A program made the translations under genes and the position numbers. From a virus, in IMG/VR virus record IMGVR_UViG_3300044609_000960, positions 64,001 through 128,000 of that record: a stretch of 64,000 nucleotides of DNA; one strand, written 5' to 3'. How positions within the stretch are numbered: the stretch's first letter is position 1; every line of letters begins with the position of its first letter. Positions 3-13,874 of the stretch are shown piece after piece. A model generated the notes under the pieces. That model was given only the letters and a program-made list of their open reading frames with translations, searched no databases and was not told the DNA's origin.

Positions 3-3000
3 ACTAAAGACCTAAAACCTATTTGGAAATTAGTATGGAGAAGTGATTCAACTTATCCTAACTCACCAAATGCTATATTAGTTAATGCTATAGACCTAAG
101 GTCCACTGTAGGTAAGGGGGTAGGAGACCATGGTCTTCTCACAGGTACAGATGACGATGATCATCTACAATATTTACATGTCTCTAACTCAAGAAGTGGA
201 ATCACAGCGAATATTTCAACTTCTGGCACATTACAAACTTCTAACACTACACAATCCTCCATTTCTACAGAAGGTGGGGCATATATTGCAGAAAAATTAG
301 GCATAGGAGTTCTTCTACCATCTGTAGAACTAGAGGTAGATGGAGATGCAAAAATTGACTCCTTAGGGCTTCTTGGTAATAATTCCTACAGAACTTATAT
401 CAACTCAGGTCAGTCTCTTACAAGTGATATCACTTATGACCTTCCATCTAACTACGGTGTTAATGGCCAGACTGTGGTCACTGATGGTAATGGCAATCTT
501 ACTTGGGGATCTAGTTATTTTGCTGGTAGCACTTCTATCGTAGTATCTGCTGCTGATGGAAATGATAACAATGACGGAAGTTTACTCCCAGTTAGAACTA
601 TTAAAAAAGCTTGTCAACTTGCAGCAAATAAAGCAAAACCGGTATGTATTTTTGTAAAAGCTGGTGATTATACTGAGCAAAATCCTATCATTGTTCCAGA
701 TGACGTTTCAATTGTGGGGGATAGTTTACGATCTGTTATTATCCGCCCAGCTATTCCAAAGGCAGATATCCTTAGACTTAGGAATGGTTCTTATCTAACA
801 GGTCTAACATTTAGAGACGCTCTAGATGAGGAAGGAGTACCCGACTTTACTTGGAGATACATCGTAGCATTTGATGATCCATTTGATACCTCTGTTTCTA
901 GAGCAGGATACACTGGTCTTCCATCTACCAAACCTACAATCACAAGATCACCTTATATCCAAAACTGTTCCATTATTTCATTCTTGGGTGGTAGTGGAGT
1001 TATTGTCGATGGATCAAAGGTAGTCACTCCAAACATCCCAGATAATCCAGAAGAGGCAGAAAGACCCACCATTGGAGCAGTTCCAGAACAAGGTAAGTCT
1101 ATCGTTGCTAACGCATTTACAATGCTTTCTTTCGGAGGAACGGGATGGCGCGTTGTTAATGATGGTTATACCCAGGTGGTATCTTGCTTCCAAATCTTCT
1201 GTAAGAATGGTACATATTGCCAAGGTGGTGGTTATGCCTCTATCACTAACTCTGCGACAAACCACGGACTTTATGCTCTAAGATCACAAGGATACAGAGC
1301 AGAGTCATTTAACTTCGATAGGGGATATATTTCTGCTCTTTCGATCGTAGATAATAAACAAACCATGCAAGTTCTCGGTACAGGCCGAGAAGTAATCAAT
1401 CACTATATTCTAAAATTCTATAATACTGGAACAAATACCGAGATAACTTCACAATTCAAACAGACACCTATTGAAAAAGTATTTGATCCTAATATTGACG
1501 TAGATTATGCTACTAATGTTATTACGTATAACAACCATGGTTATATCAATCGTCAACAAGTAATCTATAGCGCTAATGGTGGCGCAGAAATTACCGGATT
1601 ATTCGATGAAACTGTTTATTACGTAAATGTAATTGATCCGAATACTTTCAAACTTTTTGACGACGAAGAATTATCCTCAGAGGTTGACCTCGAAACAGGG
1701 ACGTATACTCAAACTCATAAATTAATTACAAACCTTGAAGAGTTTTTTGTAGATGGAGTCATTGAGTATCATAACTTCTACCAAGAACTTACCCTTAGCG
1801 CTGGATCCTATACCTTCAATAAAGGTGAGATTGTAATTGGTACGTCTTTAACTACTACGTCATCGGGTACTGTTTGGAGTTGGAATTCATCTACAAATAA
1901 ACTTATTGTCTCTGTTAATAAGGTCTTAGTTGCTGGGCAACAAGTCCGCCAACAATTCACAAATGGAATGACCTTACAGGACCACTCTGTGACTCCTGTT
2001 ACTGCCACTGTTAATACAAACTTCCGTAGAGAAGATCTCTATACCTCATTATTTAAGACTAATTCAACAAGCCCAGGTAATTCAATCCAGAACTTTGAGA
2101 ATCTAGAGGGTAAGGACATTCACCTCCATCGCCCCTCGATTGTTAACTCATCTGCTCATACTTGGGAATATGCCGGATCTGGAATGGATTATAATGCTCT
2201 GCCTCAAAACGGAGCAAAAAGCATCCCAGCCTATGAACAATTCCAAAACCTTCCCGGTAGAGTCTATTCCTCTGGTACGAATGAACTCGGGGACTTTAAG
2301 ATCGGGGACTCGATTGTCGCTGAGAATAGAACCGGTAATATCTTCTTCAAGCAGACAGTAACAGTTGGTGAACTTTCCTCACTGAAACTGACCATCTCCG
2401 ATATCACCATTGAAGAGATTTCCACCGATGTTGGTCTTGGTGATAATGAGGTGGGTGGAGCATCTAATTCCAGGTTATCCACTCAGTTTGCAATTAGGGG
2501 TTTCTTAGATCAAAAACTAGGTTCTTTCCAAGGAAAAACCGTATCAACTAACTCTATTCCTGGTTCGGTTGTACAACTTAACTCCTCTGGTAAGATCAAC
2601 CTCGACCTTATTCCAGCTGTTAGAACTTTTAATACCTATAAGTTCGAAGGGCAAGATTCTAGACTCGAGGCTTATCTCGACGTGCCCCCAGTAGAGGTGT
2701 TGGCTGGTGATTTTGTTACTGAGAGTGTTAGTGGCAGCGATACTACCTATGTGCTCCAGAGTGATGACATATCTCAATATATTGTTATTGATCCTGCTGA
2801 GACTATTAATCTCACTGGTATTACTCAGATCCACGGTGTTATTTCTAATGCTGATGGTATCATCGATACAAGTTTTGGCACTAATGGTCTAGTTAGTGGA
2901 ATTGTTAATAATACTTCGATTACAAATGGTGGAAGTTTATATACCCCGTCCACCGGAACAGTTACTTACAAGAATATAACTCTTACAAATATAACTGTAG

Positions 3001-6000
3001 CTGGAACACCGTCAGGAGCAAAAGCTACCATCATTGTAACTGATGGAGTAGTGACCTTGGTAGATATGACCAGAGGCGGATCTGGTTACGCCGTTGGAGA
3101 CATTCTATCAGCAAACTCAGCGGATATTGGAGGCACAGGAGCTAACTTTAGACTTACTGTAACAGGTGTCGAAAGAAGACTTTATATTGATCTTGCTGGA
3201 GAGAAAAGAAAGTTTGTAGCTAATTCTGTTGCTCCAGACTTCATCTCTGACGCGGACTCTCCTTCTAAAACTCTAACAAATACCTATTCTTCTGTTACAA
3301 ATTTTAGCGCAGAAGCAACACCCACAGGCGCTATAGATGTAGCAAATGATCAATTTGTTATTACAAATCATGGATTCACAAATGGGGACCTGATTTTCTA
3401 TAGTTCTGGAGTTAATATCCCTGTCGGAGGGTTATTAAGTCAGACTTCCTATTATATCAAAGTCATAAATACTAATACGATAGAACTATTTACGAGTTAT
3501 GACTTAAATCCTTCTAATAAGGTTCAAATTTCGTCCACCTCAACCGGAACGCATTCCTTTACGGTATATGGAGTAAGCACAGATAAAGATACCATTTATC
3601 TTACCTCTCACGGATATACTACAGGAGATGCCGTAAGAATCACAGGAACTGGTTTACCGGCTGGCCTATTTAGTGGTAATTATTACTTTATTGGAAGTAT
3701 TACTACAAATACTTTTACCCTTCATGAATCTAAATCCGCGGCCCTTGACTCTATCAATGGTGTAACAAACTCTGAGGTAAATTTCACATCCCAAGGTACC
3801 AGTACAACAACTTTTAAATCCCTTGATGTAAGAATTATTGGGGCTCTTAATACTTCCTGCAAGGAGTCGGATAATTGGTCGTTCCTTTCTGGTGCAAATA
3901 TCGATGCTAGCAATATTGTCTCTGGTACTATTGCAACTACACGACTCGCCACTTCAGGCACAGCCAATACCGACACTTTCTTAAGAGGAGATCAAACATG
4001 GTCTTATGCTGTTCAGTCTGTCTATATCGACCCTAATAACTCAAATGGTCTTCAGCTCTCCAATGGTGGCACTCATCTCATTACAGGCGGAATTACAGCG
4101 TATCACGGAAACGTAAAGCTAGAGATCGATAATGTAAATGGCACTGAAACTCGTACTGCAGGTTTTACTAATATTGGTGTCGCTGCGTTTAACACTGAGC
4201 AGTTCAATGTCTCTGTTGTTGGTGATGTTTCTGTCAAGAACGGCGTTATTGATGCTGGTACATTAGACGGCCAAGATAGCACTTACTATCTCGATCCATC
4301 AAACCTAATTAGCGCTATTCCAGTCGATAGAGGTGGCACAGGTCATAGTTCATATACTAATGGCCAACTTCTAATTGGTAACTCTAATAACACGCTCACC
4401 AAGGCCACTCTAACTCCCACAACCGATCAAACCACAATTACCAACGGTTCTGGCTCGGTTACTTTGGGTCTTGCAACTAACGTTACTACGTCGAGATTCA
4501 CCTCGACAGTTGCCTCGGGCACATCGCCTCTTACGGTTACATCCAATACTTTATGCGCTAACCTTAACTCCGATCTACTTGATGGACAAGAAGGAACCTA
4601 TTATCTAAACTACTCCAACTTCACCAATACTCCAGACCTTACTAAGACCTTGACGATGAACACGTCTGGTATAGGATTGAGTGGAAGTGCTACCTATTCT
4701 GCCAATACAGCAAGTAATATCACCTTCACGGTGACGTCTAACGCTACTGCGGTGAACACGGCAAGCACAATCGTTTCTAGAGATGCTAGTGGGAATTTTA
4801 GTGCTGGGACAATTACAGCTAATCTAACAGGAACTGCTTCGTTAGTAGGGATTACTGATGATACATCAACTAACACTACGCATTACATCCACTTCGGTGA
4901 TGCAACTTCCGGTGGAGATAATGTAAAGGTCTCTAGTACCAAGTTTGTATTTAACCCAAGTACTTCAAGAATTGGACTTGGTACTCCCTCGCCGGAAGCT
5001 AAACTAGATATAAGAGGCGACGGGAACGTATTGAATCTTGCACCAGATACTAGTGGAAGTTACACACTTATAAATTTCAATTCCAGAGTTAACTTTGGAA
5101 GCGATAAGGGATTTATTCTAACACAAGACGAAAGTTCAAACTGTGTTGGAACAGGCAATGAAGATCTACGTATGGTCATTGGTGTTCACAATGACTTTAG
5201 AAGCAACACAACTCACTCGGATGAACTATGGTTCCAAGGTGGCGGAAGATTAGTACAGAATGTGGGGTCATGGGATAGTGAACTTAATACTATTATAGGA
5301 ACACCGGGAGCAGGAACTGCAAATGGTGGTCCTCAATATGAATGGAGAATTAACAACTCTCCAGTTATTAACATTTTAAATAATGGAAATTTTGGTATTG
5401 GGATTCAAAATCCTGGACATAAATTATCTGTTAATGGTGATTTTAGAATTTCATCTACAGCCAATCTTGGAACAACTGCGGGTAACTCATTAACTCTAGG
5501 AGATATTACCTACTCCAATGGCAATCAAAGTTATTTTAGATTTAAAGCAACAAGACTAGCGGACGGAACTAATTGGACTACAGCTTCTAATAAAATAGTA
5601 TGCGTTACTGATGTTACAGAGCAAGGTTATATTGAATTCAATCCACCTAATGATAATTACGGCATTGGATTAGGTCAAGGATCTAATGAGTACCTAAGGA
5701 TAAAAAATGGTGGCAATGTTGGTATAGGAACTACAAATCCCGGCTATAAACTTGAGGTCAATGGGTCATTTGCTGCCACCACTAAGTCGTTCGTCATCGA
5801 TCACCCAACCAAACCCGATCATAAACTCCGTTATGGATCACTCGAAGGTCCTGAAAATGGCGTCTATATCCGTGGTAGGTCCAAAGAGTTTGTCATAGAA
5901 TTACCAGAATACTGGACAAAACTAGTCGATCCTGACTCAATCACTGTCAATCTCACCCCTATCGGCAAAACTCAAACGCTCTGGGTTAAAGATATAAGAG

Positions 6001-6119
6001 ATAATAAGATCTATCTCGGATCAAAATGTTCCGAGATCAATTACTTCTACATGGTGCTTGCGGAGCGGGCTGATGTAGATAAGCTTGAAGTTGAGATTCC
6101 TAATGGCAATAGCTTATAA
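3..6119 (+). CDS. Long tail fibre / large virion structural protein, 5'-partial
   Basis: The frame is open from base 3 (TKDLKPIWK...DHGLLTGTDDDDHLQYLH), so the true start lies upstream of the window. It has a beta-helix-like N region (SPYIQNCS, RPSIVNSSAHTWEYAG), three HGY/HGF-type repeats, two LDGQxxTYYL motifs, three GxGxxxP..KL.V.G junction motifs near the C-terminus and a terminal KSFVIDHP...LEGPENGVYIRG domain typical of phage fibres. Confidence 0.85.
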   Translation, partial: TKDLKPIWKLVWRSDSTYPNSPNAILVNAIDLRSTVGKGVGDHGLLTGTDDDDHLQYLHVSNSRSGITANISTSGTLQTSNTTQSSISTEGGAYIAEKLGIGVLLPSVELEVDGDAKIDSLGLLGNNSYRTYINSGQSLTSDITYDLPSNYGVNGQTVVTDGNGNLTWGSSYFAGSTSIVVSAADGNDNNDGSLLPVRTIKKACQLAANKAKPVCIFVKAGDYTEQNPIIVPDDVSIVGDSLRSVIIRPAIPKADILRLRNGSYLTGLTFRDALDEEGVPDFTWRYIVAFDDPFDTSVSRAGYTGLPSTKPTITRSPYIQNCSIISFLGGSGVIVDGSKVVTPNIPDNPEEAERPTIGAVPEQGKSIVANAFTMLSFGGTGWRVVNDGYTQVVSCFQIFCKNGTYCQGGGYASITNSATNHGLYALRSQGYRAESFNFDRGYISALSIVDNKQTMQVLGTGREVINHYILKFYNTGTNTEITSQFKQTPIEKVFDPNIDVDYATNVITYNNHGYINRQQVIYSANGGAEITGLFDETVYYVNVIDPNTFKLFDDEELSSEVDLETGTYTQTHKLITNLEEFFVDGVIEYHNFYQELTLSAGSYTFNKGEIVIGTSLTTTSSGTVWSWNSSTNKLIVSVNKVLVAGQQVRQQFTNGMTLQDHSVTPVTATVNTNFRREDLYTSLFKTNSTSPGNSIQNFENLEGKDIHLHRPSIVNSSAHTWEYAGSGMDYNALPQNGAKSIPAYEQFQNLPGRVYSSGTNELGDFKIGDSIVAENRTGNIFFKQTVTVGELSSLKLTISDITIEEISTDVGLGDNEVGGASNSRLSTQFAIRGFLDQKLGSFQGKTVSTNSIPGSVVQLNSSGKINLDLIPAVRTFNTYKFEGQDSRLEAYLDVPPVEVLAGDFVTESVSGSDTTYVLQSDDISQYIVIDPAETINLTGITQIHGVISNADGIIDTSFGTNGLVSGIVNNTSITNGGSLYTPSTGTVTYKNITLTNITVAGTPSGAKATIIVTDGVVTLVDMTRGGSGYAVGDILSANSADIGGTGANFRLTVTGVERRLYIDLAGEKRKFVANSVAPDFISDADSPSKTLTNTYSSVTNFSAEATPTGAIDVANDQFVITNHGFTNGDLIFYSSGVNIPVGGLLSQTSYYIKVINTNTIELFTSYDLNPSNKVQISSTSTGTHSFTVYGVSTDKDTIYLTSHGYTTGDAVRITGTGLPAGLFSGNYYFIGSITTNTFTLHESKSAALDSINGVTNSEVNFTSQGTSTTTFKSLDVRIIGALNTSCKESDNWSFLSGANIDASNIVSGTIATTRLATSGTANTDTFLRGDQTWSYAVQSVYIDPNNSNGLQLSNGGTHLITGGITAYHGNVKLEIDNVNGTETRTAGFTNIGVAAFNTEQFNVSVVGDVSVKNGVIDAGTLDGQDSTYYLDPSNLISAIPVDRGGTGHSSYTNGQLLIGNSNNTLTKATLTPTTDQTTITNGSGSVTLGLATNVTTSRFTSTVASGTSPLTVTSNTLCANLNSDLLDGQEGTYYLNYSNFTNTPDLTKTLTMNTSGIGLSGSATYSANTASNITFTVTSNATAVNTASTIVSRDASGNFSAGTITANLTGTASLVGITDDTSTNTTHYIHFGDATSGGDNVKVSSTKFVFNPSTSRIGLGTPSPEAKLDIRGDGNVLNLAPDTSGSYTLINFNSRVNFGSDKGFILTQDESSNCVGTGNEDLRMVIGVHNDFRSNTTHSDELWFQGGGRLVQNVGSWDSELNTIIGTPGAGTANGGPQYEWRINNSPVINILNNGNFGIGIQNPGHKLSVNGDFRISSTANLGTTAGNSLTLGDITYSNGNQSYFRFKATRLADGTNWTTASNKIVCVTDVTEQGYIEFNPPNDNYGIGLGQGSNEYLRIKNGGNVGIGTTNPGYKLEVNGSFAATTKSFVIDHPTKPDHKLRYGSLEGPENGVYIRGRSKEFVIELPEYWTKLVDPDSITVNLTPIGKTQTLWVKDIRDNKIYLGSKCSEINYFYMVLAERADVDKLEVEIPNGNSL

Positions 6120-6753
6120 TCCTCAGATAGTTACAAGTGGTTTAATACTCTGCCTGGATGCAGGGAACACAAAATCCTATCCTGGCACTGGGATCACTTG
6201 GATTGACTTGAGTGATAATAAATACATAGCCACAATGAGAAATCTTACATCGTCAAATTGGGTTTTAATCGACGGACAAAGGGCATTTGAAACAAATGAT
6301 ACACCTAATCAAGGATTTACTATATCCAATTTTGTTAGACCCGGTACTCAGAGGACATATAGTATTTGGTTAAAATCAAAATCATTTTCTATTGGATGGC
6401 AGACTTGGTTTGATGATGAAAATGAAAGAATTTTATTTGGAACTCAAACAAATACAGTTCATATTTATCCAGATGTTAATTTATCAGCAAATTTACAAAT
6501 TAATACTTGGTATAATTTAGCATATACTTTATCAGGGACAACTGCTATTGGATACGTAAATGGAATTTCTATAGGAAGTGGAACTTATACCACGGCATTA
6601 TCAGGTGGAACAGGAAATTTATGGATATTAGGCGACCCTGGAGGTGAGGTTACAAGTTGTTATTGTTCCTGCGCCTCGGTCTATAATAGGGCACTTACAG
6701 CATCTGAGATCCAGCAGAACTTCATCGCTCTCCGCGGCCGTTTCGGAATCTGA
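6103..6753 (+). CDS. Concanavalin A-like lectin (LamG) domain protein, probable fibre-tip adhesin
   Basis: ATG at 6103 gives MAIAYNPQIVTSGLILCLDAGNTKSYPGTG...WYNLAYT...YVNG...VYNRALTASEIQQNF, the classic cyanophage LamG termini. It overlaps the fibre stop by 17 nt. Confidence 0.85.
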   Translation: MAIAYNPQIVTSGLILCLDAGNTKSYPGTGITWIDLSDNKYIATMRNLTSSNWVLIDGQRAFETNDTPNQGFTISNFVRPGTQRTYSIWLKSKSFSIGWQTWFDDENERILFGTQTNTVHIYPDVNLSANLQINTWYNLAYTLSGTTAIGYVNGISIGSGTYTTALSGGTGNLWILGDPGGEVTSCYCSCASVYNRALTASEIQQNFIALRGRFGI

Positions 6754-6761
6754 GTTTAAAG
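6754..6761 (+). promoter_or_regulatory. Putative phage late promoter GTTTAAAG
   Basis: Exact motif directly after the TGA and 29 nt before ATG 6791; it recurs before many structural genes. Confidence 0.75.
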
Positions 6762-6790
6762 ACACTATATATAGCGTATAGTGTCACTCC

Positions 6791-9700
6791 ATGGCAGCAT
6801 CCGACAAGAATATTTTAATCTCACCTCAAAGGGGTTCGACTACTCAGGTCCCCTCTATTGTCTTCACTGGAGATGGTAATGATCCGATTACTCTTAGAGT
6901 ACTTGATGGGGTTCCTGGTGCCTTAAGCTTTGAGGGAGGTGCAGGGCAATTATTTAGTCTCACCGATAATCTTACCTCTGGATCCATCTTCTCTGTTAAT
7001 GATGTCTCAGGGCTTCCTAGTATTGATGTAAATGCTTCAGGTCTTATTCAAATCGCCCCATTGGGGGGAACTGTAGCAATAGGTAAAAGTACTGTTGTAG
7101 CCGGAAGAACCGTTGATATCAAAGGAAATACACATATCGATGGTACATTAACAAGTACTGATATTAGATTTTCTATTATCTATGATTCTAATGACTCAGC
7201 TTATTATGCTGATTTTAATGGAACAACTAGACTTAATAATCTCCATTCAAACATAGCTACATTTGGTTCTAGGGCTAATAGCTCAAATTTTGGTGGGAAT
7301 ACTGGCGGTCTGTCTGGTGTATCTCAGGTACTCGAAGTTAGGGCTAATGGAAGTATTCCATTAATGACCTGGCATTATGAGAACATAGCTACAAGGCACA
7401 TAGGTCTAGACTCTTCTGGATTCTTACAAGTCTATAATCCCAATGAAGCTGGGGGATCTGTGCTTCAGGCCAACTCGAGTCTAAGAGCTCCCATCTTCTA
7501 TGATTCTAATGACACTGGATATTACATCGATCCCAACTCGACCTCAAACTTTGTTAGACAATACTTAACTTATAATAGCGCCTCTGGACTAGCTAACGGC
7601 TCATTCAATGTCTCTTCTGCCACTATAGGTGGATTACATTTTACAAACGGAAGCGGTGTTAGTGGAAGTGGTAATCAAGCAGCTATAACATTTATGGGAA
7701 GTTCAGCTTCCCAGGCTCAAGCGGGAATCTACGTCCATAACAATAATTCCGAAGGAACTCACATGGCTCTCTGTACTACAGATAGCTATGCGACTGGACC
7801 ACAGATAGGACTTAGAATAATGAATAGTGGTTATTCACTATTCCCTAGATCCTATGTTGAGGCGACCGGGTCATTTAGAGCTCCGATATTCTATGATTCT
7901 AATAATACTGGTTACTATGTCGATCCAGCTTCGCAGACTAATCTCAACTATCTGAGATTAGCAAATAATAATTCAATTTATTTCTCAACAACATTAACTG
8001 CCGAATTCAACCACGACAGTGATTCCACTCCTGTCGCCTTTAACATGATCAAGAGCGGAAATAGTATTACTGATAGTAATAACTATGGAGTCCTTTCTCT
8101 TGTAAGAAGAAACCATAATAACTCTGCAACTTCCGCCGGTGCTGGCCTCTACTTTGTCCTCAAGGATGATGGTGGCACTGATAGAGAATACGCCGGGATC
8201 TACGGAAAGAAAACTGTTGCTGGGGCGTCCGGTGGCGAGTTAGTGTTCATGAACTATGGCAGAAATGAAGTTGCCTATTGTAATTCTGATTTCTTCTCGC
8301 ATACTTCGGATATAAGAACACCGATCTTCTACGACTCAAATGATACAGGGTTTTATTTAGATCCAGCTTCTAAATCCAGATTAAACACTCTGTCCCTATC
8401 TGACGATAGAACCCTCTCCTACCCTGGAATCCTAAACCTTGGCAGCATCTCATATAACTACAACTTCCTAAACGGATCTTGGTCTTCCTCTATCACGGCT
8501 GGGATCATGGCGCATTGCGCCGATCAATGGGAAATTGCTATCCATGACTCCGGTACTAGAGTAGTATCTCCGTTCCTATTTGATGGAGGAAGTAATCACC
8601 GATTACTCATGGGTCGCGACATTGGATGGGGAACAATGTATATCGAGGCGGCTAATTCATTTAGAGCGCCTATTTTCTACGACTCTAATGACACTGCGTA
8701 CTATCTAGATGCCGCTAGTTCTACCACGTCGCTCTCGATCGCTGGCGCAATAGAGCAGGGTCCTAATTTCGCCCATCCAAACATCGAATGGAGCGCCTCA
8801 GGAACCTCCACCGGAATGGTGATTTTCCGTCTTCCTGGTGGAACTGGGAACTATGGCATGGTGCATATGGTATTCGATTATTACGAATACAATAGCCCTA
8901 GGACTGCAACTATTATCGTTGGTGGACATAACTGGAACGGAGCTTGGTATAACGTTGCATGTAATGTTGCAGGATTTATTGATAAAATAGTACGAGTTGG
9001 AGTTAAGGACGGGCAATATTGCGTTGTATTTGGCGAAGCAGGAAGCTCTTGGAGTTATGGCACTATTAGACTAAGAAAGATTCACAATGGTTCTTTCTAT
9101 AATAATATTATGGATTTAGGGGGCGTTTATTCGGCTTCCCAAACAACAACCGAGTCTTTTTCTAATATTTCTGCGGATATAAGAGAATCAAGAACTTCTG
9201 GGGCATTTATTGCATCTACAATAACTGCTTCTACGTCTGCTTCGGCTCCAATTTATTACGATTCTAATAATACTGCTTATTACACTGATCCAAATGGTCA
9301 ATCTTCACTTTGGGGCGTCGCAATAAGAGGGGACTATGGGTCCACGAACACTGATAATCAAATTTTCTTTTGGGGCGCTGGAAATACAACTACTTCTGCG
9401 ATAGGATTTAAAGCAAATGGCGGATCCTTTGGAAATCCTACAGGAACCGGTGATGGATATAACACGTACTTTACCATGGATACCGATGGTAGGGGATGGG
9501 TGTTTAGAAGAGGAGTTGGTGGAACTGATTTCAATTCTGCCTACAATTCTGGATGGATTTTAAATAATGGCGTTTGGCAAGCAAATAGCAGCATGAGAGC
9601 GCCAATATTTTATGATTCGAATAATACCGGATATTATACAGACCCAGCTTCAACATCAATTTTAAATTCATTAACAATAAATGGTACATTAAATGCATAT

Positions 9701-12700
9701 TCAAACGCAATAGTTGTTAATAGAATTAATTTTAGAGATACTTCAGGTTCGGCCGATAGCGATCCATACTGCCTAAGATGGATGGATGAGAGCGCCAATG
9801 GTGGATTGAGTTGGTTAGAACTTCAGATGAATGATGATTCTAACGAAGAGTTCAGAATCTACGGAAATTCTTGCAGTGGGTATGGATGTGGAGAAATATC
9901 AGGAAATCTTTATCATAGATTTAGAGCGGATGGCTGGGCATGGCATTCTAACTATGTAGAGGGAGGTAGTAGTGTAAGAGGACCTATTTTTTATGATTCC
10001 AATGATACTGGGTATTATGTAGATCCAGCATCCACAACCCAACTTAATGTAGCTAGGTTTGCAAGTGGTGGATATACAAAAACCTATTCATTTACCCCAG
10101 CAGGTACAAAGGGATCAGGTAACTATGTTTGGGTTAGAGCCTCGATGGGTGGATTTAACGCAGGTGGGGATACTGTAAGATTCACAATAACCCGCTCTAT
10201 TAATGATAATGGTAATGATCCTTATGGTGGTTGCACGGCTGATTTCACTGCTCACTCCAGAGAATGGCATGGTGGCCAAGAAACTTGCACAGTATTCTAT
10301 ACACAACATGGTAGTGCTCCATACGGTCAATATATTACTAACGCGGGTCCAAGAGATCTAGCTGGAAACGGTTATTGGTTCTATATGAGGGTCCTTCAAG
10401 GCGTGACCTATAAAGTCTATGTTCACGCTGAGTCGGGGCCAATGGGTAATTTTGATCCGGCTTCTCAGACTGACCCAGGAAGCGTACCAGCTGTCTATAC
10501 TGGATTTAATATACTCGGAAGTGGTGGTAATTCTGCAGATTTTGTAGCCCAGAATAACTCTTTTGGACTTTCTAGTGTAAGAGCTCCAATATTCTATGAC
10601 TATAATGATACCGGATTTTATGATGATCCTGCTTCTACCTCTAATTTAAATCTCGTACAAACCAGGGATCTTAGAGCACTTGGTCAGATCAGAGCTACTG
10701 GTTGGTATAACTCAAATAGTGGATCTCATACTGGTCCCGCTATTGAAATTGGAGTGAGTTCTCCTGGTAGTAGCAATGGGTACATTCTCGCTTATAATAG
10801 AGATAATAGTTCATATATAAATATGAATTTCAATGCCACCGCATTTAATTTCGGTGGGCAGAGCGGCGGATTTCTTAACTGTGATACCAGTATAAGGTCA
10901 CCGATCTTTTACGACTCTAATGACACTGGATATTATCTCGATCCAAATGCAGACAGATCCACAAACATCAATGGATTCTCATCCAGAACTGTAGAATATA
11001 CAAAGGGAACGTATAAATACAACACTCCAAGACCAATTCATACTTCCGACACAAACTATTGGACCGGGACTATGGGTTGGGGTACCACCGATTTTAATAA
11101 TGTAATGACCTGGGGATCTGGGTTCTTTGATACCTGGAGTTCTCCGTCTAATAGTCCAGGCGATACTTCACATTGGGTAGGTGTTCAGGCTTACCATTAT
11201 GTAAATGCGGCAAATAGCGGATATGGTTGGCAACTTGCTGGTGGAGTTACTGATTCTCTATGGTGGAGACATTCTTGGCCAAATAATAGTTCTTGGTTCA
11301 AGGTTGCGATGTATAATAACAACGCAAATACATCTACATTCTATTCTACTCTTTATTATGATTCAAATGATTCAGGATACTATCTAGATCCTAATTCAAC
11401 TAGTGACTCAGCTCTTAGGATAAGAGGAGGAGCTCTGCATGGTCCTAACTCAAGTTGGGGAGCATATTTACTCGTTGGAGGGGACGGTAGACAAAATTAT
11501 ACTAATAATACTACCACGGCCTCAGTATGTACTACAAACGGAAATCTCCATATAGATGCTGCTAGTGGATTTAATACATATATCAACCATTATGATGGAA
11601 ACATAATCTATTTTGGTAATGGTTCAAATGGCAACTGGGGAGAATGGTCGGGTAGTAATTTCATAGCATATGGACCGGTTTACGGAACTATATACTATGA
11701 TCGTGATAATAGTAGTTATTACTTAAATCCCCATAATGCCTCTAGATTAAATCTTCTTACCTCAGATTCAACGATTTCTTATAACGGTTATGAAACAGGT
11801 TACTCTGGTTCTAATAGTAACTTACCTAGAACAAATCGACCTTATGCTTTTGGTTTCCAAGAGAGTGGAGCTTGGTCTGGTACCTATCCAGATCTTGTAC
11901 TTCAATATCATACCGGAGTAACACTTGCTGGTAATGCGAGTTATGACGGTATAACATTTAAGGCCGATTTTAGCGATGATACCGTAATCTTCAGAGTTAA
12001 TGGTGGATCAAACTACCTATATAAATATCGGTGGATGTACACTACCTCAGATGGTTTCTACTCCGATACTAATAACGCCCATTGGAACCCGAACGTATCT
12101 AGCAGTTATGGTTCATGGAGAATGATTGGAGGTAGAAATGGTTGGACTGGTATCTATTTTGAGAATGCTGGAAATCAAGTCAATCACCTCATGTTTGATA
12201 CCAGTAATAATGGTGGATTCTACTCACAAAGTTCTGCTAGATGGTGGTTATATTACAATTACGGGAATAATTGTTGGGGAGTTGGAACCTCTACCACTAA
12301 TTCTGCGTACAATATCTATTGTCCAACAGGGGTTTATTCTGCAGGACGTGTAGATGGATCGATCTTTTATGATAGTAATGATACTCAATATTACATCGAT
12401 GGAAATAGCGAATCTAGACTTTATAGGCTGAGAGTTGGTCCATATGCTGGATCTGTTCAGAGCGGAGGTCAGACTGGGCTCGAATTAGTTAACACCGGAG
12501 GTACTGGAGATGGTAATGTAGCAGCGATGTCTTTCCATTGCTCTGGATATTATGCAATGCACCTGCACCTCCGGCACGATGGTTACTTCGGGGCCGGCGG
12601 ATGGTCTGCTTCCACCTGGCGTTGGTACGTTAACATGACAAATGGCGATATGACCGCCGTGGGTAACGTTACAGCGTACTCAGACATTAGACTCAAAGAA

Positions 12701-13015
12701 GAGATTGAACCACTGCAAAACTCTCTAGAGAAGTTAATGCAGATAAATGGAGTATCTTTCAGATGGAAAGATCTGCCGGAAGTTGTTGGTCACCCAGGCA
12801 AGAAGGACTTCGGAATCATCGCGCAAGAAGTCGAAAAAGTATTCCCAGAGGTAGTACATGAGTCGGCTCACGAGTCACCAGATGGTGATTCATACAAGAC
12901 AGTTGCGTACGATAAGCTCGTCCCGGTACTTTTAGAGGCAATTAAGGAGCAACAAAAGCAAATCGATGATCTTAAAAAAGAGGTTGAAAGATTAAAATCT
13001 AAACTAGGAGAATAA
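6791..13015 (+). CDS. Long modular tail fibre with C-terminal intramolecular chaperone (peptidase S74)
   Basis: Gly/Ser/Asn/Trp-rich modules separated by 13 PIFYDSNDTGYY repeats; the C-terminus YSDIRLKEEI...GVSFRW...GIIAQEVEKVFPEVV...VAYDKLVPVLLEAIKEQQ is an S74 domain. Confidence 0.9.
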   Translation: MAASDKNILISPQRGSTTQVPSIVFTGDGNDPITLRVLDGVPGALSFEGGAGQLFSLTDNLTSGSIFSVNDVSGLPSIDVNASGLIQIAPLGGTVAIGKSTVVAGRTVDIKGNTHIDGTLTSTDIRFSIIYDSNDSAYYADFNGTTRLNNLHSNIATFGSRANSSNFGGNTGGLSGVSQVLEVRANGSIPLMTWHYENIATRHIGLDSSGFLQVYNPNEAGGSVLQANSSLRAPIFYDSNDTGYYIDPNSTSNFVRQYLTYNSASGLANGSFNVSSATIGGLHFTNGSGVSGSGNQAAITFMGSSASQAQAGIYVHNNNSEGTHMALCTTDSYATGPQIGLRIMNSGYSLFPRSYVEATGSFRAPIFYDSNNTGYYVDPASQTNLNYLRLANNNSIYFSTTLTAEFNHDSDSTPVAFNMIKSGNSITDSNNYGVLSLVRRNHNNSATSAGAGLYFVLKDDGGTDREYAGIYGKKTVAGASGGELVFMNYGRNEVAYCNSDFFSHTSDIRTPIFYDSNDTGFYLDPASKSRLNTLSLSDDRTLSYPGILNLGSISYNYNFLNGSWSSSITAGIMAHCADQWEIAIHDSGTRVVSPFLFDGGSNHRLLMGRDIGWGTMYIEAANSFRAPIFYDSNDTAYYLDAASSTTSLSIAGAIEQGPNFAHPNIEWSASGTSTGMVIFRLPGGTGNYGMVHMVFDYYEYNSPRTATIIVGGHNWNGAWYNVACNVAGFIDKIVRVGVKDGQYCVVFGEAGSSWSYGTIRLRKIHNGSFYNNIMDLGGVYSASQTTTESFSNISADIRESRTSGAFIASTITASTSASAPIYYDSNNTAYYTDPNGQSSLWGVAIRGDYGSTNTDNQIFFWGAGNTTTSAIGFKANGGSFGNPTGTGDGYNTYFTMDTDGRGWVFRRGVGGTDFNSAYNSGWILNNGVWQANSSMRAPIFYDSNNTGYYTDPASTSILNSLTINGTLNAYSNAIVVNRINFRDTSGSADSDPYCLRWMDESANGGLSWLELQMNDDSNEEFRIYGNSCSGYGCGEISGNLYHRFRADGWAWHSNYVEGGSSVRGPIFYDSNDTGYYVDPASTTQLNVARFASGGYTKTYSFTPAGTKGSGNYVWVRASMGGFNAGGDTVRFTITRSINDNGNDPYGGCTADFTAHSREWHGGQETCTVFYTQHGSAPYGQYITNAGPRDLAGNGYWFYMRVLQGVTYKVYVHAESGPMGNFDPASQTDPGSVPAVYTGFNILGSGGNSADFVAQNNSFGLSSVRAPIFYDYNDTGFYDDPASTSNLNLVQTRDLRALGQIRATGWYNSNSGSHTGPAIEIGVSSPGSSNGYILAYNRDNSSYINMNFNATAFNFGGQSGGFLNCDTSIRSPIFYDSNDTGYYLDPNADRSTNINGFSSRTVEYTKGTYKYNTPRPIHTSDTNYWTGTMGWGTTDFNNVMTWGSGFFDTWSSPSNSPGDTSHWVGVQAYHYVNAANSGYGWQLAGGVTDSLWWRHSWPNNSSWFKVAMYNNNANTSTFYSTLYYDSNDSGYYLDPNSTSDSALRIRGGALHGPNSSWGAYLLVGGDGRQNYTNNTTTASVCTTNGNLHIDAASGFNTYINHYDGNIIYFGNGSNGNWGEWSGSNFIAYGPVYGTIYYDRDNSSYYLNPHNASRLNLLTSDSTISYNGYETGYSGSNSNLPRTNRPYAFGFQESGAWSGTYPDLVLQYHTGVTLAGNASYDGITFKADFSDDTVIFRVNGGSNYLYKYRWMYTTSDGFYSDTNNAHWNPNVSSSYGSWRMIGGRNGWTGIYFENAGNQVNHLMFDTSNNGGFYSQSSARWWLYYNYGNNCWGVGTSTTNSAYNIYCPTGVYSAGRVDGSIFYDSNDTQYYIDGNSESRLYRLRVGPYAGSVQSGGQTGLELVNTGGTGDGNVAAMSFHCSGYYAMHLHLRHDGYFGAGGWSASTWRWYVNMTNGDMTAVGNVTAYSDIRLKEEIEPLQNSLEKLMQINGVSFRWKDLPEVVGHPGKKDFGIIAQEVEKVFPEVVHESAHESPDGDSYKTVAYDKLVPVLLEAIKEQQKQIDDLKKEVERLKSKLGE
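7166..12400 (+). repeat. 13 interspersed in-frame repeats, consensus SxRAPIFYDSNDTGYYxDPxS
   Basis: The Tyr codon of the YD core lies at 7181, 7499, 7892, 8330, 8678, 9257, 9611, 9992, 10595, 10910, 11357, 11696 and 12368 (spacing 315-672 nt). Confidence 0.95.
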
Positions 13016-13017
13016 TA

Positions 13018-13452
13018 ATGGCCCTTATTAAGGATTTTGAGATCCCAGACACTGGATTGGTTATCAAGGATGCCTATCATGTGATCACAAAAGTCGATAC
13101 TGAGAAACGTCTCAATGATATCGCGCCTCCGCCAGACTCTTCTACTTCTACAGGTTATACCCACCGTAATAATTCAGATGAGTCCCAATGGGTGTATTGG
13201 AAGGCCGGATATATTGGTCGGATATCGATAGAGATTTACACAACCAAGCAAGCACGCGAGGAGGGAAAAAAGCCCATCGGAGCGATCTGTATCAACCCTA
13301 CCGACGTTCAGGTTAACGGGTCCCTTACTACGGATATCAAGGATTTCGATTTGAGATTTTTTATAGATCCTACTAGTCAATCGAGCATAATTGACCAGGC
13401 CTACCAACATCTTCTCATGTTAGATTTTTATAAGGGCGCTATTCCTGATTAG
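13018..13452 (+). CDS. Hypothetical fibre-associated protein (chaperone/assembly?)
   Basis: 144 aa with an AGGAG SD, immediately after the S74 fibre; the MAL.K...DAYHVI...IIDQAYQHL pattern is common after phage fibres. Confidence 0.6.
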   Translation: MALIKDFEIPDTGLVIKDAYHVITKVDTEKRLNDIAPPPDSSTSTGYTHRNNSDESQWVYWKAGYIGRISIEIYTTKQAREEGKKPIGAICINPTDVQVNGSLTTDIKDFDLRFFIDPTSQSSIIDQAYQHLLMLDFYKGAIPD

Positions 13453-13490: not shown

Positions 13491-13874
13491 ATGTCTATTA
13501 CGTATTCTTGGAAAATTACTGGTATTAAAAAAGTTGATACCAAAGATGTTCAAGGTGTTATTTTTCAAACTTATTGGAAGAAAATAGGTGAGGATACCGA
13601 AGGTAATATCGGCGAGTTTGTCGGTGCTACTCCATTTGATCCTAAAACTGTCGATCCAGAAAACTTTATTTCATTTGAGAATCTTACCGAAGAACTCGTA
13701 CTTGGTTGGATTCAAAACATCGTTGTGGGTGATTATGAACGTCATGTAAATGAACGTATAGCAGAACAGATTGAAGCTAAAAAGGTTAATATTGAAGAAG
13801 TAAATGACGGTGCTTTACCATGGCAGCCTGGAGATACTCCTGTGACTCCAGCACCGACATCTGTTGCAGAATAA
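13491..13874 (+). CDS. Conserved phage fibre-associated small protein
   Basis: MSITYSWKIT...FISFENLTEELVLGWI...LPW pattern, typically found next to S74 fibres. Confidence 0.65.
   Translation: MSITYSWKITGIKKVDTKDVQGVIFQTYWKKIGEDTEGNIGEFVGATPFDPKTVDPENFISFENLTEELVLGWIQNIVVGDYERHVNERIAEQIEAKKVNIEEVNDGALPWQPGDTPVTPAPTSVAE

Follow-up and report, generated by a model that had tools for sequence, protein, structure and literature searches.

Why does a single tail-fibre gene repeat one short peptide thirteen times, and what lies between the copies? The question is raised by a 64,000-nucleotide (nt) stretch of viral DNA, positions 64,001 to 128,000 of the IMG/VR virus record IMGVR_UViG_3300044609_000960 (this whole stretch is called the window below), in which an open reading frame (ORF) at 6791-13015 on the plus strand, beginning with ATG, encodes a fibre protein of 2,074 amino acids (aa). 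An earlier note on this DNA had read the repeats as joints that act both as structural knuckles and as short homology cassettes for the in-frame exchange of the modules between them. The best explanation of the data, and one that we consider probable, is that of a bead-and-joint mosaic fibre: the connector is conserved as protein, and whole beads are exchanged with crossovers that fall in or beside it.

Joints and beads of the fibre

A search by regular expression finds 13 copies of xSxRAPIFYDSNDTGYYxDPxSTS, all of them in the fibre frame, at aa 129, 235, 366, 512, 628, 821, 939, 1066, 1267, 1372, 1521, 1634 and 1858. Their spacing of 105-224 aa corresponds to 315-672 nt, and the pattern search thereby reproduced the number, the frame and the intervals that had been given for a motif of about 20 aa. 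A loose pattern ([IL][FYI]YDSNDTGYY.DP) likewise gives 13 copies in this frame, and neither the window nor the complete genome of 159,262 bp, an IMG/VR record that is 100% complete by CheckV, has a further copy in any of its six frames. Since the motif is confined to the fibre frame and has no copy elsewhere in the genome, the array is not a product of chance. The 13 joints align without gaps to xxxSxRxPIFYDSNDTGYYxDPxSxSxLN. Copies 1, 6, 11, 12 and 13 are the most degenerate; the suggestion that the outermost copies have degenerated most holds for 1, 11, 12 and 13, but copy 6 is equally degenerate.

A sub-threshold Pfam match to Antirestrict (PF03230; aa 513-532, nt 8327-8386; E = 0.0023) is joint 4 itself and was set aside as probably spurious. 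The same family is also precomputed for one of the homologues (P0085).

The joints delimit 14 modules (M0-M13) of 81-200 aa. When these were compared with each other by BLASTP, no similarity was found (best E 0.19). Profile-profile comparison (hhalign, with homologue-based profiles) related residues 126-200 of M12 to residues 1-82 of M13 with a probability of 98.5% and gave less than 12% for all other pairs. Hence, the modules are mutually unrelated, as the earlier note had claimed, in nearly all cases, but the C-terminal part of M12 matches the N-terminal part of M13. The modules were also said to differ in base composition, and this did not stand: their standard deviation of 0.025 in GC content and of 0.063 in GC content at third codon positions is within the range of 390-nt pieces of 16 other long ORFs (0.016-0.046 and 0.020-0.073, respectively). 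As the heterogeneity is no greater than in these control genes of the same genome, we rejected it as a sign of foreign origin.

Two of the beads were modelled with AlphaFold2 (AF2) in single joint-bead-joint units, each as a monomer; an alignment for a two-module model was dropped, as MAFFT had stacked fragments of M10 onto M11 through the common joints. In the model of joint 5-M5-joint 6 (48 sequences), the core consists of 12 strands without helices (model residues ~31-180) and has a predicted local distance difference test (pLDDT) score of 85-96, and the flanking joints have no secondary structure and a pLDDT of 45-68. The model of joint 10-M10-joint 11 (21 sequences) has a smaller alpha/beta core (pLDDT 71-85) and flanks with a pLDDT below 50, in which a faint two-residue hairpin (F-Y / T-G around D-S-N-D) can be made out. 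Both modelled cores exclude the joints. In these predictions, the beads appear as autonomous units of different kinds with the joint between them.

In a structural search against representatives, the nearest matches of M5 were C-terminal beta-sandwich domains of phage tailspikes and fibres with middling Z-scores of 6.1-8.1, namely a Klebsiella KP1 baseplate protein, the Acinetobacter Fri1, P1 and AM24 tailspikes and the Klebsiella Kp9 fibre gp42. Carbohydrate-binding modules and adhesin domains gave Z-scores of 4-5 with M5, and M10 matches domains of phage receptor-binding proteins (RBPs) weakly. Foldseek returned nothing at E ≤ 0.001 for the M5 and M10 models; T4 gp9 is among the M5 listings above this threshold. 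The Z-scores obtained with the two models speak for fold, not for function.

As for the joint itself, its invariant residues (Y-D, N, T-G-Y-Y and D-P) suggest a tight hairpin or collar, which, to judge from the monomer models, may be ordered only in a trimer. We presume that its D-S-N-D-T-G segment can be likened to DxDxDG or EF-hand-like loops and might form a Ca2+/metal site of the DxNxTG type.

The sole Pfam match of the fibre is Peptidase_S74 (PF13884) at aa 1964-2023, with 65.8 bits against a gathering cut-off of 22. The domain starts with the S-x4-K signature (SDIRLK, aa 1964-1969), 111 residues before the C-terminus of the protein; the serine and lysine of this signature are the catalytic pair of the S74 domain of the K1F endosialidase. 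PHROGs tail-fibre families align with the final ~500 residues (the C-terminal third) of the fibre only. A sequence search of the PDB with the whole fibre matched its S74 part alone, and an NCBIfam search of the fibre gave no match.

Shuffling of beads and the place of the breakpoints

At least 1,382 relatives, 1,140-3,630 aa in length, came out of a word-indexed search; in their best local alignments, only 7-67% of the query is covered, and identity reaches 78%. At the level of sequence, such partial local coverage reads as the signature of a mosaic. A 30-residue profile of the joint, run against 1.84 billion cluster representatives (clusters at 50% identity), matched 3,771 proteins at E ≤ 0.001 and 1,122 at E ≤ 1e-30. 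Relatives carry from 2 to 23 joint copies, the maximum of 23 being reached in one protein; in IMG/VR, at least 599 stretches match, and their ORFs have 2-15 joints and mostly terminate in S74. The consensus derived from 1,347 joint copies is G...A.GS.RAPIFYDSN[DN]TGYY.DP[AN]STS.LN, and the most frequent spacing of the beads is 100-130 aa. The motif is in none of Pfam, NCBIfam, the PDB and the searched literature, where motif strings matched by chance only. In some phages, at the loci L016 (7100-18370), L020 (1943-11092), L023 (6782-16768) and L056 (2-11212), two or three fibre genes with motif joints and an S74 end follow one another in tandem.

The modules were searched one by one among 120 listed homologues, the check that the earlier note had proposed, and each of them recurs in other homologues in other orders. 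One homologue reads M0 M2 M3 M1 .. M11 M10 M12 M13 (P0002), others M8 .. M7 .. M12 M13 (P0003), M5 M4 M11 M12 M13 (P0006) and M0 M5 M11 M4 M3 M13 (P0030). The ends are fixed: M0 always begins at residue 1 and M13 is always last. The best relatives of the 14 modules are spread over 9 different proteins at 64-94% identity. IMG/VR loci mostly have the order M11..M10..M13; the order in the window is M10-M11-M12-M13.

The same holds across the family. When 191 non-identical proteins were cut at their joints, the resulting 952 modules fell into 271 families, including 143 singletons. Each of the eight largest families has 9-18 distinct neighbour families on its right-hand side and 13-25 on its left, 520 of the 674 adjacent module pairs are distinct, and tandem duplicates of the same family are seen within one protein. 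Among the family pairs that co-occur in at least five proteins, 42 of 47 are found in both orders; the fibres are not collinear, and modules appear in differing orders and combinations in other phages with breaks at the motif, as had been anticipated.

The breakpoints are at the joints. In the protein, when the query is aligned with its homologues, 80% of the starts and 75% of the ends of high-scoring segment pairs (HSPs) are no more than 25 aa away from the centre of a joint (32% at random), the starts just upstream of a joint and the ends just downstream. Homologue pairs of at least 85% identity have their internal breaks 9-17 aa before a joint centre or 14-28 aa after it, and the match between P0020 and P0055 (92.8% over 195 aa) is exactly one joint-bead-joint unit. 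In the DNA of 164 viral loci from IMG/VR, 36% of 485 breakpoints, defined as non-redundant internal ends of HSPs of at least 85% identity inside fibre ORFs, are 45 nt or less away from the centre of a joint, compared with 10% expected. In one of these loci (L010), segments 6308-6634 and 6599-6951 abut, and their counterparts in another (L068; 6062-6388 and 7814-8166) are ~1.46 kb apart, with three extra beads in frame in L068. The left-to-right switch between the parents lies inside a 36-nt joint zone that matches both.

What the joint is conserved for

The joints had been described as alike in DNA and synonymously diverged, and so they are: the identity of the 13 copies is 41-73% across 72 nt, with synonymous differences between them and exact runs of typically 6-11 nt and a longest run of 20 nt (7505 versus 10916). 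At positions where copies have the same amino acid, the same codon is used in 48.8% of the cases, and the codon usage of the ORF predicts 45.6%. Across 415 joints in 72 genes, the codon homozygosity per column equals the background of the same genes. Since the choice of codons in the copies matches the background, it is the peptide that is conserved in the joint, and no sign was seen of selection for nucleotide identity or of gene conversion.

Several findings weigh against a mosaic fibre exchanged at its connectors. When BLAST extends an alignment into a conserved joint, the apparent breakpoint can shift towards the joint; moreover, the loci are relatives of one another and the breakpoints are not independent. 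For both reasons, the significance of the enrichment is overstated. About one-third of the 52 M5-family modules are bordered on one side or both by something other than the motif (GAITQAGNQVLHAGNYTSY.. on the right-hand side, LDADLLDGIDSSSF in L020 and ..RGWIFREVE.LGNVAAISNQGNMTL on the left-hand side; the loci with other linkers are L119, L125, L129, L135, L138, L141, L153, L159, L162, L164 and L020). Because these beads move among fibres with other linkers, the joint is not necessary for the mobility of a bead. Furthermore, the joints are of low confidence in the monomer AF2 models (pLDDT from below 50 to 68), so that their fold and their role in a trimer are putative, and there is no solved structure with the motif: a PDB search with the joint profile gave an antibody complementarity-determining region and a WW domain, both chance matches. 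Finally, no recent event (>95% DNA identity) involving the fibre gene of the window was found, and no module-number variant was seen in its 90% cluster (two full-length 2,074-aa sequences and fragments) or in the Logan contigs of four lake runs, where uncovered parts of the gene are uninformative and which rare variants could escape. For want of such recent events and variants the exchanges must be taken as old.

Metagenomes of lake water and other fresh water from 2016-2024 (runs X1-X14) contain a share of 0.79-1.00 of the sampled words of the gene, and the contigs of the four lake runs (X13-X16) match pieces of it without differences, which points to a persistent and widespread phage genotype. 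Seven contig-listed junctions are all motif-to-motif, with sides of 21-36 nt and foreign depths, and many loose ends are also at the motif. In view of their short anchors and differing depths, we read these junctions as joint copies of co-occurring phages and not as deletion variants.

One reading goes further than the mosaic and makes the joint a self-sufficient, universal and possibly Ca2+-binding trimerising hairpin or collar, by which nearly any beta-domain could be fitted in frame into a fibre and which would turn the beads, of at least 271 families, into a natural plug-and-play library; placed along the shaft, they would bind different glycans of the cell surface and the fibre would be a multivalent, multi-receptor adhesin. 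We hold this to be unlikely. If it were true, the host range would be set by the combination of beads, along the shaft as well as at the tip.

Another explanation, to which we give somewhat less credence still, needs selection only: recombination would be random and illegitimate, junctions outside the joints would ruin a bead fold and be purged, and the motif would have no mechanistic part. The absence of DNA-level constraint on the joints is in agreement with it, as are the three or more other types of flank among M5-family modules and the autonomous folds of the beads with the joints outside their cores. However, the L010/L068 junction is in exact register, and its zone of identity with both parents is expected of a short-homology crossover and unlikely for random end joining. 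The enrichment of DNA breakpoints also peaks within ~45 nt around the joint centre and does not extend across the whole inter-bead region.

The strong form of the earlier proposal, a joint that is a DNA substrate selected for in-frame swapping and part of a purpose-built diversification system, is improbable. It would account for the clustering of DNA breakpoints at the joint, for the L010/L068 crossover in register inside the motif and for contigs of co-occurring lake phages that match the window only across joints (at least 88% over ~20-40 nt). Yet synonymous sites in the joints have diverged to the degree predicted from codon usage (0.488 versus 0.456, and 415 copies at background), which disfavours it, the exact runs between copies are typically of 6-11 nt and at most of 20 nt, and modules also travel among fibres with other linkers; nor was there a match to the RecA Pfam family in the whole genome. 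What is left of the proposal is the exchange of modules with breaks at the joints, but neither the joint as a selected homology cassette nor the multi-receptor adhesin finds support. Its remark that neither reverse transcriptase nor invertase is visible can be extended from the window to the entire CheckV-complete genome, in which RVT_1 (reverse transcriptase) had no match at E ≤ 0.01 and PF00239 (resolvase/invertase, serine recombinases) no match, tyrosine recombinases not having been searched for.

That the modules are diverged copies of one ancestral domain in collinear fibres, with the joints as the only recognisable remnant, is scarcely credible: the relation of M12(126-200) to M13(1-82) and the beta-rich nature of both folded beads might be cited for it, but all remaining pairs are below 12% by hhalign, M5 (a ~150-aa, 12-strand sandwich) and M10 (~85-aa, alpha/beta) are unlike in size and in the succession of their secondary-structure elements, and modules of one family, up to 94% identical, are found at varying positions beside varying neighbours, which collinearity does not allow.

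The bead-and-joint mosaic, to which we return, would work as follows. The fibre is presumably trimeric and built like beads on a string, with M0 probably anchoring it to the virion and the S74 chaperone, by its sequence, probably cleaving itself off once folded. The twelve internal globular beads, of 80-200 aa, unrelated and by prediction mostly beta-rich, are each bounded by a connector of ~25 residues and may bind receptors. The connector would be kept for structure, as a short hairpin or collar in the trimer that possibly binds a metal through D-x-N-x-T-G..D. Because all beads have the same in-frame boundary, they have repeatedly been inserted, deleted, duplicated, reordered and exchanged between the fibre genes of different phages, with crossovers in the connector or next to it, and because foldable products would be selected for, only junctions at bead boundaries survive. 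The patchy 60-75% similarity of connector DNA would then be a by-product of the peptide constraint; it may aid a short-homology recombination pathway, not being itself selected.

Genomic setting and known counterparts

Other structural genes in the window have ~76% DNA identity to the cyanophages S-TIM5, S-TIM54, S-TIM61 and S-TIM66. Because of this similarity of the structural genes and the near-verbatim presence of the gene in lake and freshwater metagenomes, we assign the phage, on sequence grounds, to the freshwater S-TIM5-like cyanophages and regard the gene as that of its long tail fibre.

The genes around the fibre are structural (Table 1 lists the features on which this analysis rests). 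Upstream lie a second giant fibre of 1,881 aa (ORF 474-6119) and a 222-aa Laminin_G_3 (concanavalin-like lectin) protein; the ORF of the latter (6085-6753, plus strand) is placed between the two fibres and has 35 nt in common with the end of the 1,881-aa one, and its product is possibly a small accessory of the fibre of lectin type. The 1,881-aa fibre has 'LDGxxxxYYL' joints of its own, VIDAGTLDGQDSTYYLDPSNL and NSDLLDGQEGTYYLNYSNF, at 4263-4330 and 4578-4640 on the plus strand. The YYLDP half is common to these and to the 13-copy motif, and the two types of connector may be related.

On the 3' side follow a 144-aa ORF, a 127-aa DUF7936 protein and a BNR-repeat protein. The 144-aa ORF has no Pfam or PHROG match; its homologues were found in 15 loci, in 14 of which they start 3-7 nt after the stop codon of the fibre. 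A DUF7936 homologue lies on the same strand and directly 3' of the fibre in 113 of the 164 IMG/VR loci, with a median gap of 55 nt. Judging from this conserved position, the DUF7936 protein may serve in the assembly of the fibre or be its distal partner.

Among cultured phages, Synechococcus phage DSL-LC03 (Kyanoviridae, T4-like, from a lake; OR003938.1) is the sole match outside the S74 part. Its 'hypothetical protein' of 3,161 aa (WJZ47903.1) resembles the window fibre in having joints (at least five) and an S74-type C-terminus, and the two phages have in common a freshwater lake origin and a DUF7936 homologue directly 3' of the gene (31% identity in DSL-LC03). DSL-LC03 differs in being a T4-like cyanomyovirus, and its fibre is ~30% identical over parts, has modules of its own and joints concentrated C-terminally, and is unannotated. 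As the family is present in this T4-like phage, too, the joint architecture spans myovirus lineages.

Table 1. Features of the jointed fibre gene and its 3' neighbours (positions in the window)
Feature	Position	Strand	Description
Tail-fibre gene	6791..13015	+	N-terminal anchor module, 12 internal beads, 13 joints, C-terminal S74 chaperone; from ORF, PHROG and PF13884
Module M0 (aa 1-122)	6791..7156	+	N-terminal, putative attachment end; at residue 1 in all 24 homologues with M0
Joint 1	7157..7228	+	degenerate: TDIRFSIIYDSNDSAYYADFNGTT
Joint 2	7475..7546	+	SSLRAPIFYDSNDTGYYIDPNSTS
Joint 3	7868..7939	+	
Joint 4	8306..8377	+	
Joint 5	8654..8725	+	
Module M5 (aa 646-814)	8726..9232	+	predicted all-beta sandwich bead, phage-RBP-like fold; in 57 of 120 homologues
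Joint 6	9233..9304	+	degenerate
Joint 7	9587..9658	+	
Joint 8	9968..10039	+	
Joint 9	10571..10642	+	
Joint 10	10886..10957	+	
Module M10 (aa 1390-1514)	10958..11332	+	predicted small alpha/beta bead, Trp/Gly-rich; in 70 of 120 homologues
Joint 11	11333..11404	+	degenerate
Joint 12	11672..11743	+	the most degenerate of all
Joint 13	12344..12415	+	degenerate
Peptidase_S74 intramolecular chaperone domain (aa 1964-2023)	12680..12859	+	begins S-D-I-R-L-K; PF13884
144-aa ORF	13018..13452	+	begins 3 nt past the fibre stop; occasional companion gene
127-aa DUF7936 protein (PF25590)	13491..13874	+	downstream partner conserved in the jointed fibre family

It is poorly understood which hosts aquatic cyanophages can infect, and most of their giant fibre genes carry no annotation beyond 'hypothetical'. 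One joint peptide marks at least 3,771 protein clusters and parses the genes into beads, which offers a route to annotation; it allows bead families to be catalogued and the exchange of beads to be tracked across S-TIM5-like and T4-like lineages. The joints are also candidate natural splice points for the engineering of chimeric fibres, and they provide a clean test case of mosaic-fibre joints kept for the protein and not for DNA homology.

The principle of exchange is already known. General shuffling of RBP fragments was reportedly described by Smug et al. (2023, Nat Commun). Ongoing shuffling of fragments, with 'mobile pseudo-domains' across fibre classes, is documented in the RBPseg atlas (PMC12143355), and mosaic fibres are, as summarised in PMC1079782, established since Haggard-Ljungquist (1992). 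The mosaic fibres of the P2/P1/Mu/lambda type are likewise patchworks of exchangeable domains spread by horizontal transfer, with a conserved N-terminal anchor and variable distal parts, but they have no uniform connector at every domain boundary. The K1F endosialidase, the L-shaped fibre pb1 of T5 and the phi29 neck appendage have in common with our fibre the C-terminal S74 chaperone with its S-x4-K start; the likeness is limited to the last ~110 residues and does not extend to the shaft of repeated joints. Diversity-generating retroelements (BPP-1 Mtd) and invertible segments (Mu Gin, P1 Cin) have a similar outcome, variable host-recognition proteins. However, no match to a reverse transcriptase or a resolvase/invertase and no second motif copy or silent cassette was found in this genome, and the variation is evolutionary and between genomes, whereas theirs is programmed within a genome.

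A close counterpart in mechanism is that of the T-even phages, in which, according to the account in PMC1079782 of Tetart, Desplats & Krisch (1998), recombination between conserved motifs swaps the specificity of the adhesin. In the T-even gp37/gp38 system as in ours, short conserved peptide motifs bound variable segments, segments are swapped between phages with breakpoints at the conserved motifs, and this takes place without reverse transcriptase or invertase. The differences are equally plain. The T-even motifs are GxHxH His boxes or glycine-rich motifs, whereas the window fibre has no G.H.H and a single H.H; theirs delimit short hypervariable loops, and here up to 13 joints (23 in relatives) delimit whole domains of 80-200 aa from at least 271 families. 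Folding depends on gp38/gp57 there and on a C-terminal S74 chaperone here, and the hosts are enterobacterial there and aquatic (those of a cyanophage) here. In summary, the jointed fibre works like the motif-mediated exchange of the T-even phages without being a member of that system, and what is new is the motif, its uniform use wherever one bead meets the next, the large family with its large vocabulary of beads, and the conserved DUF7936 partner.

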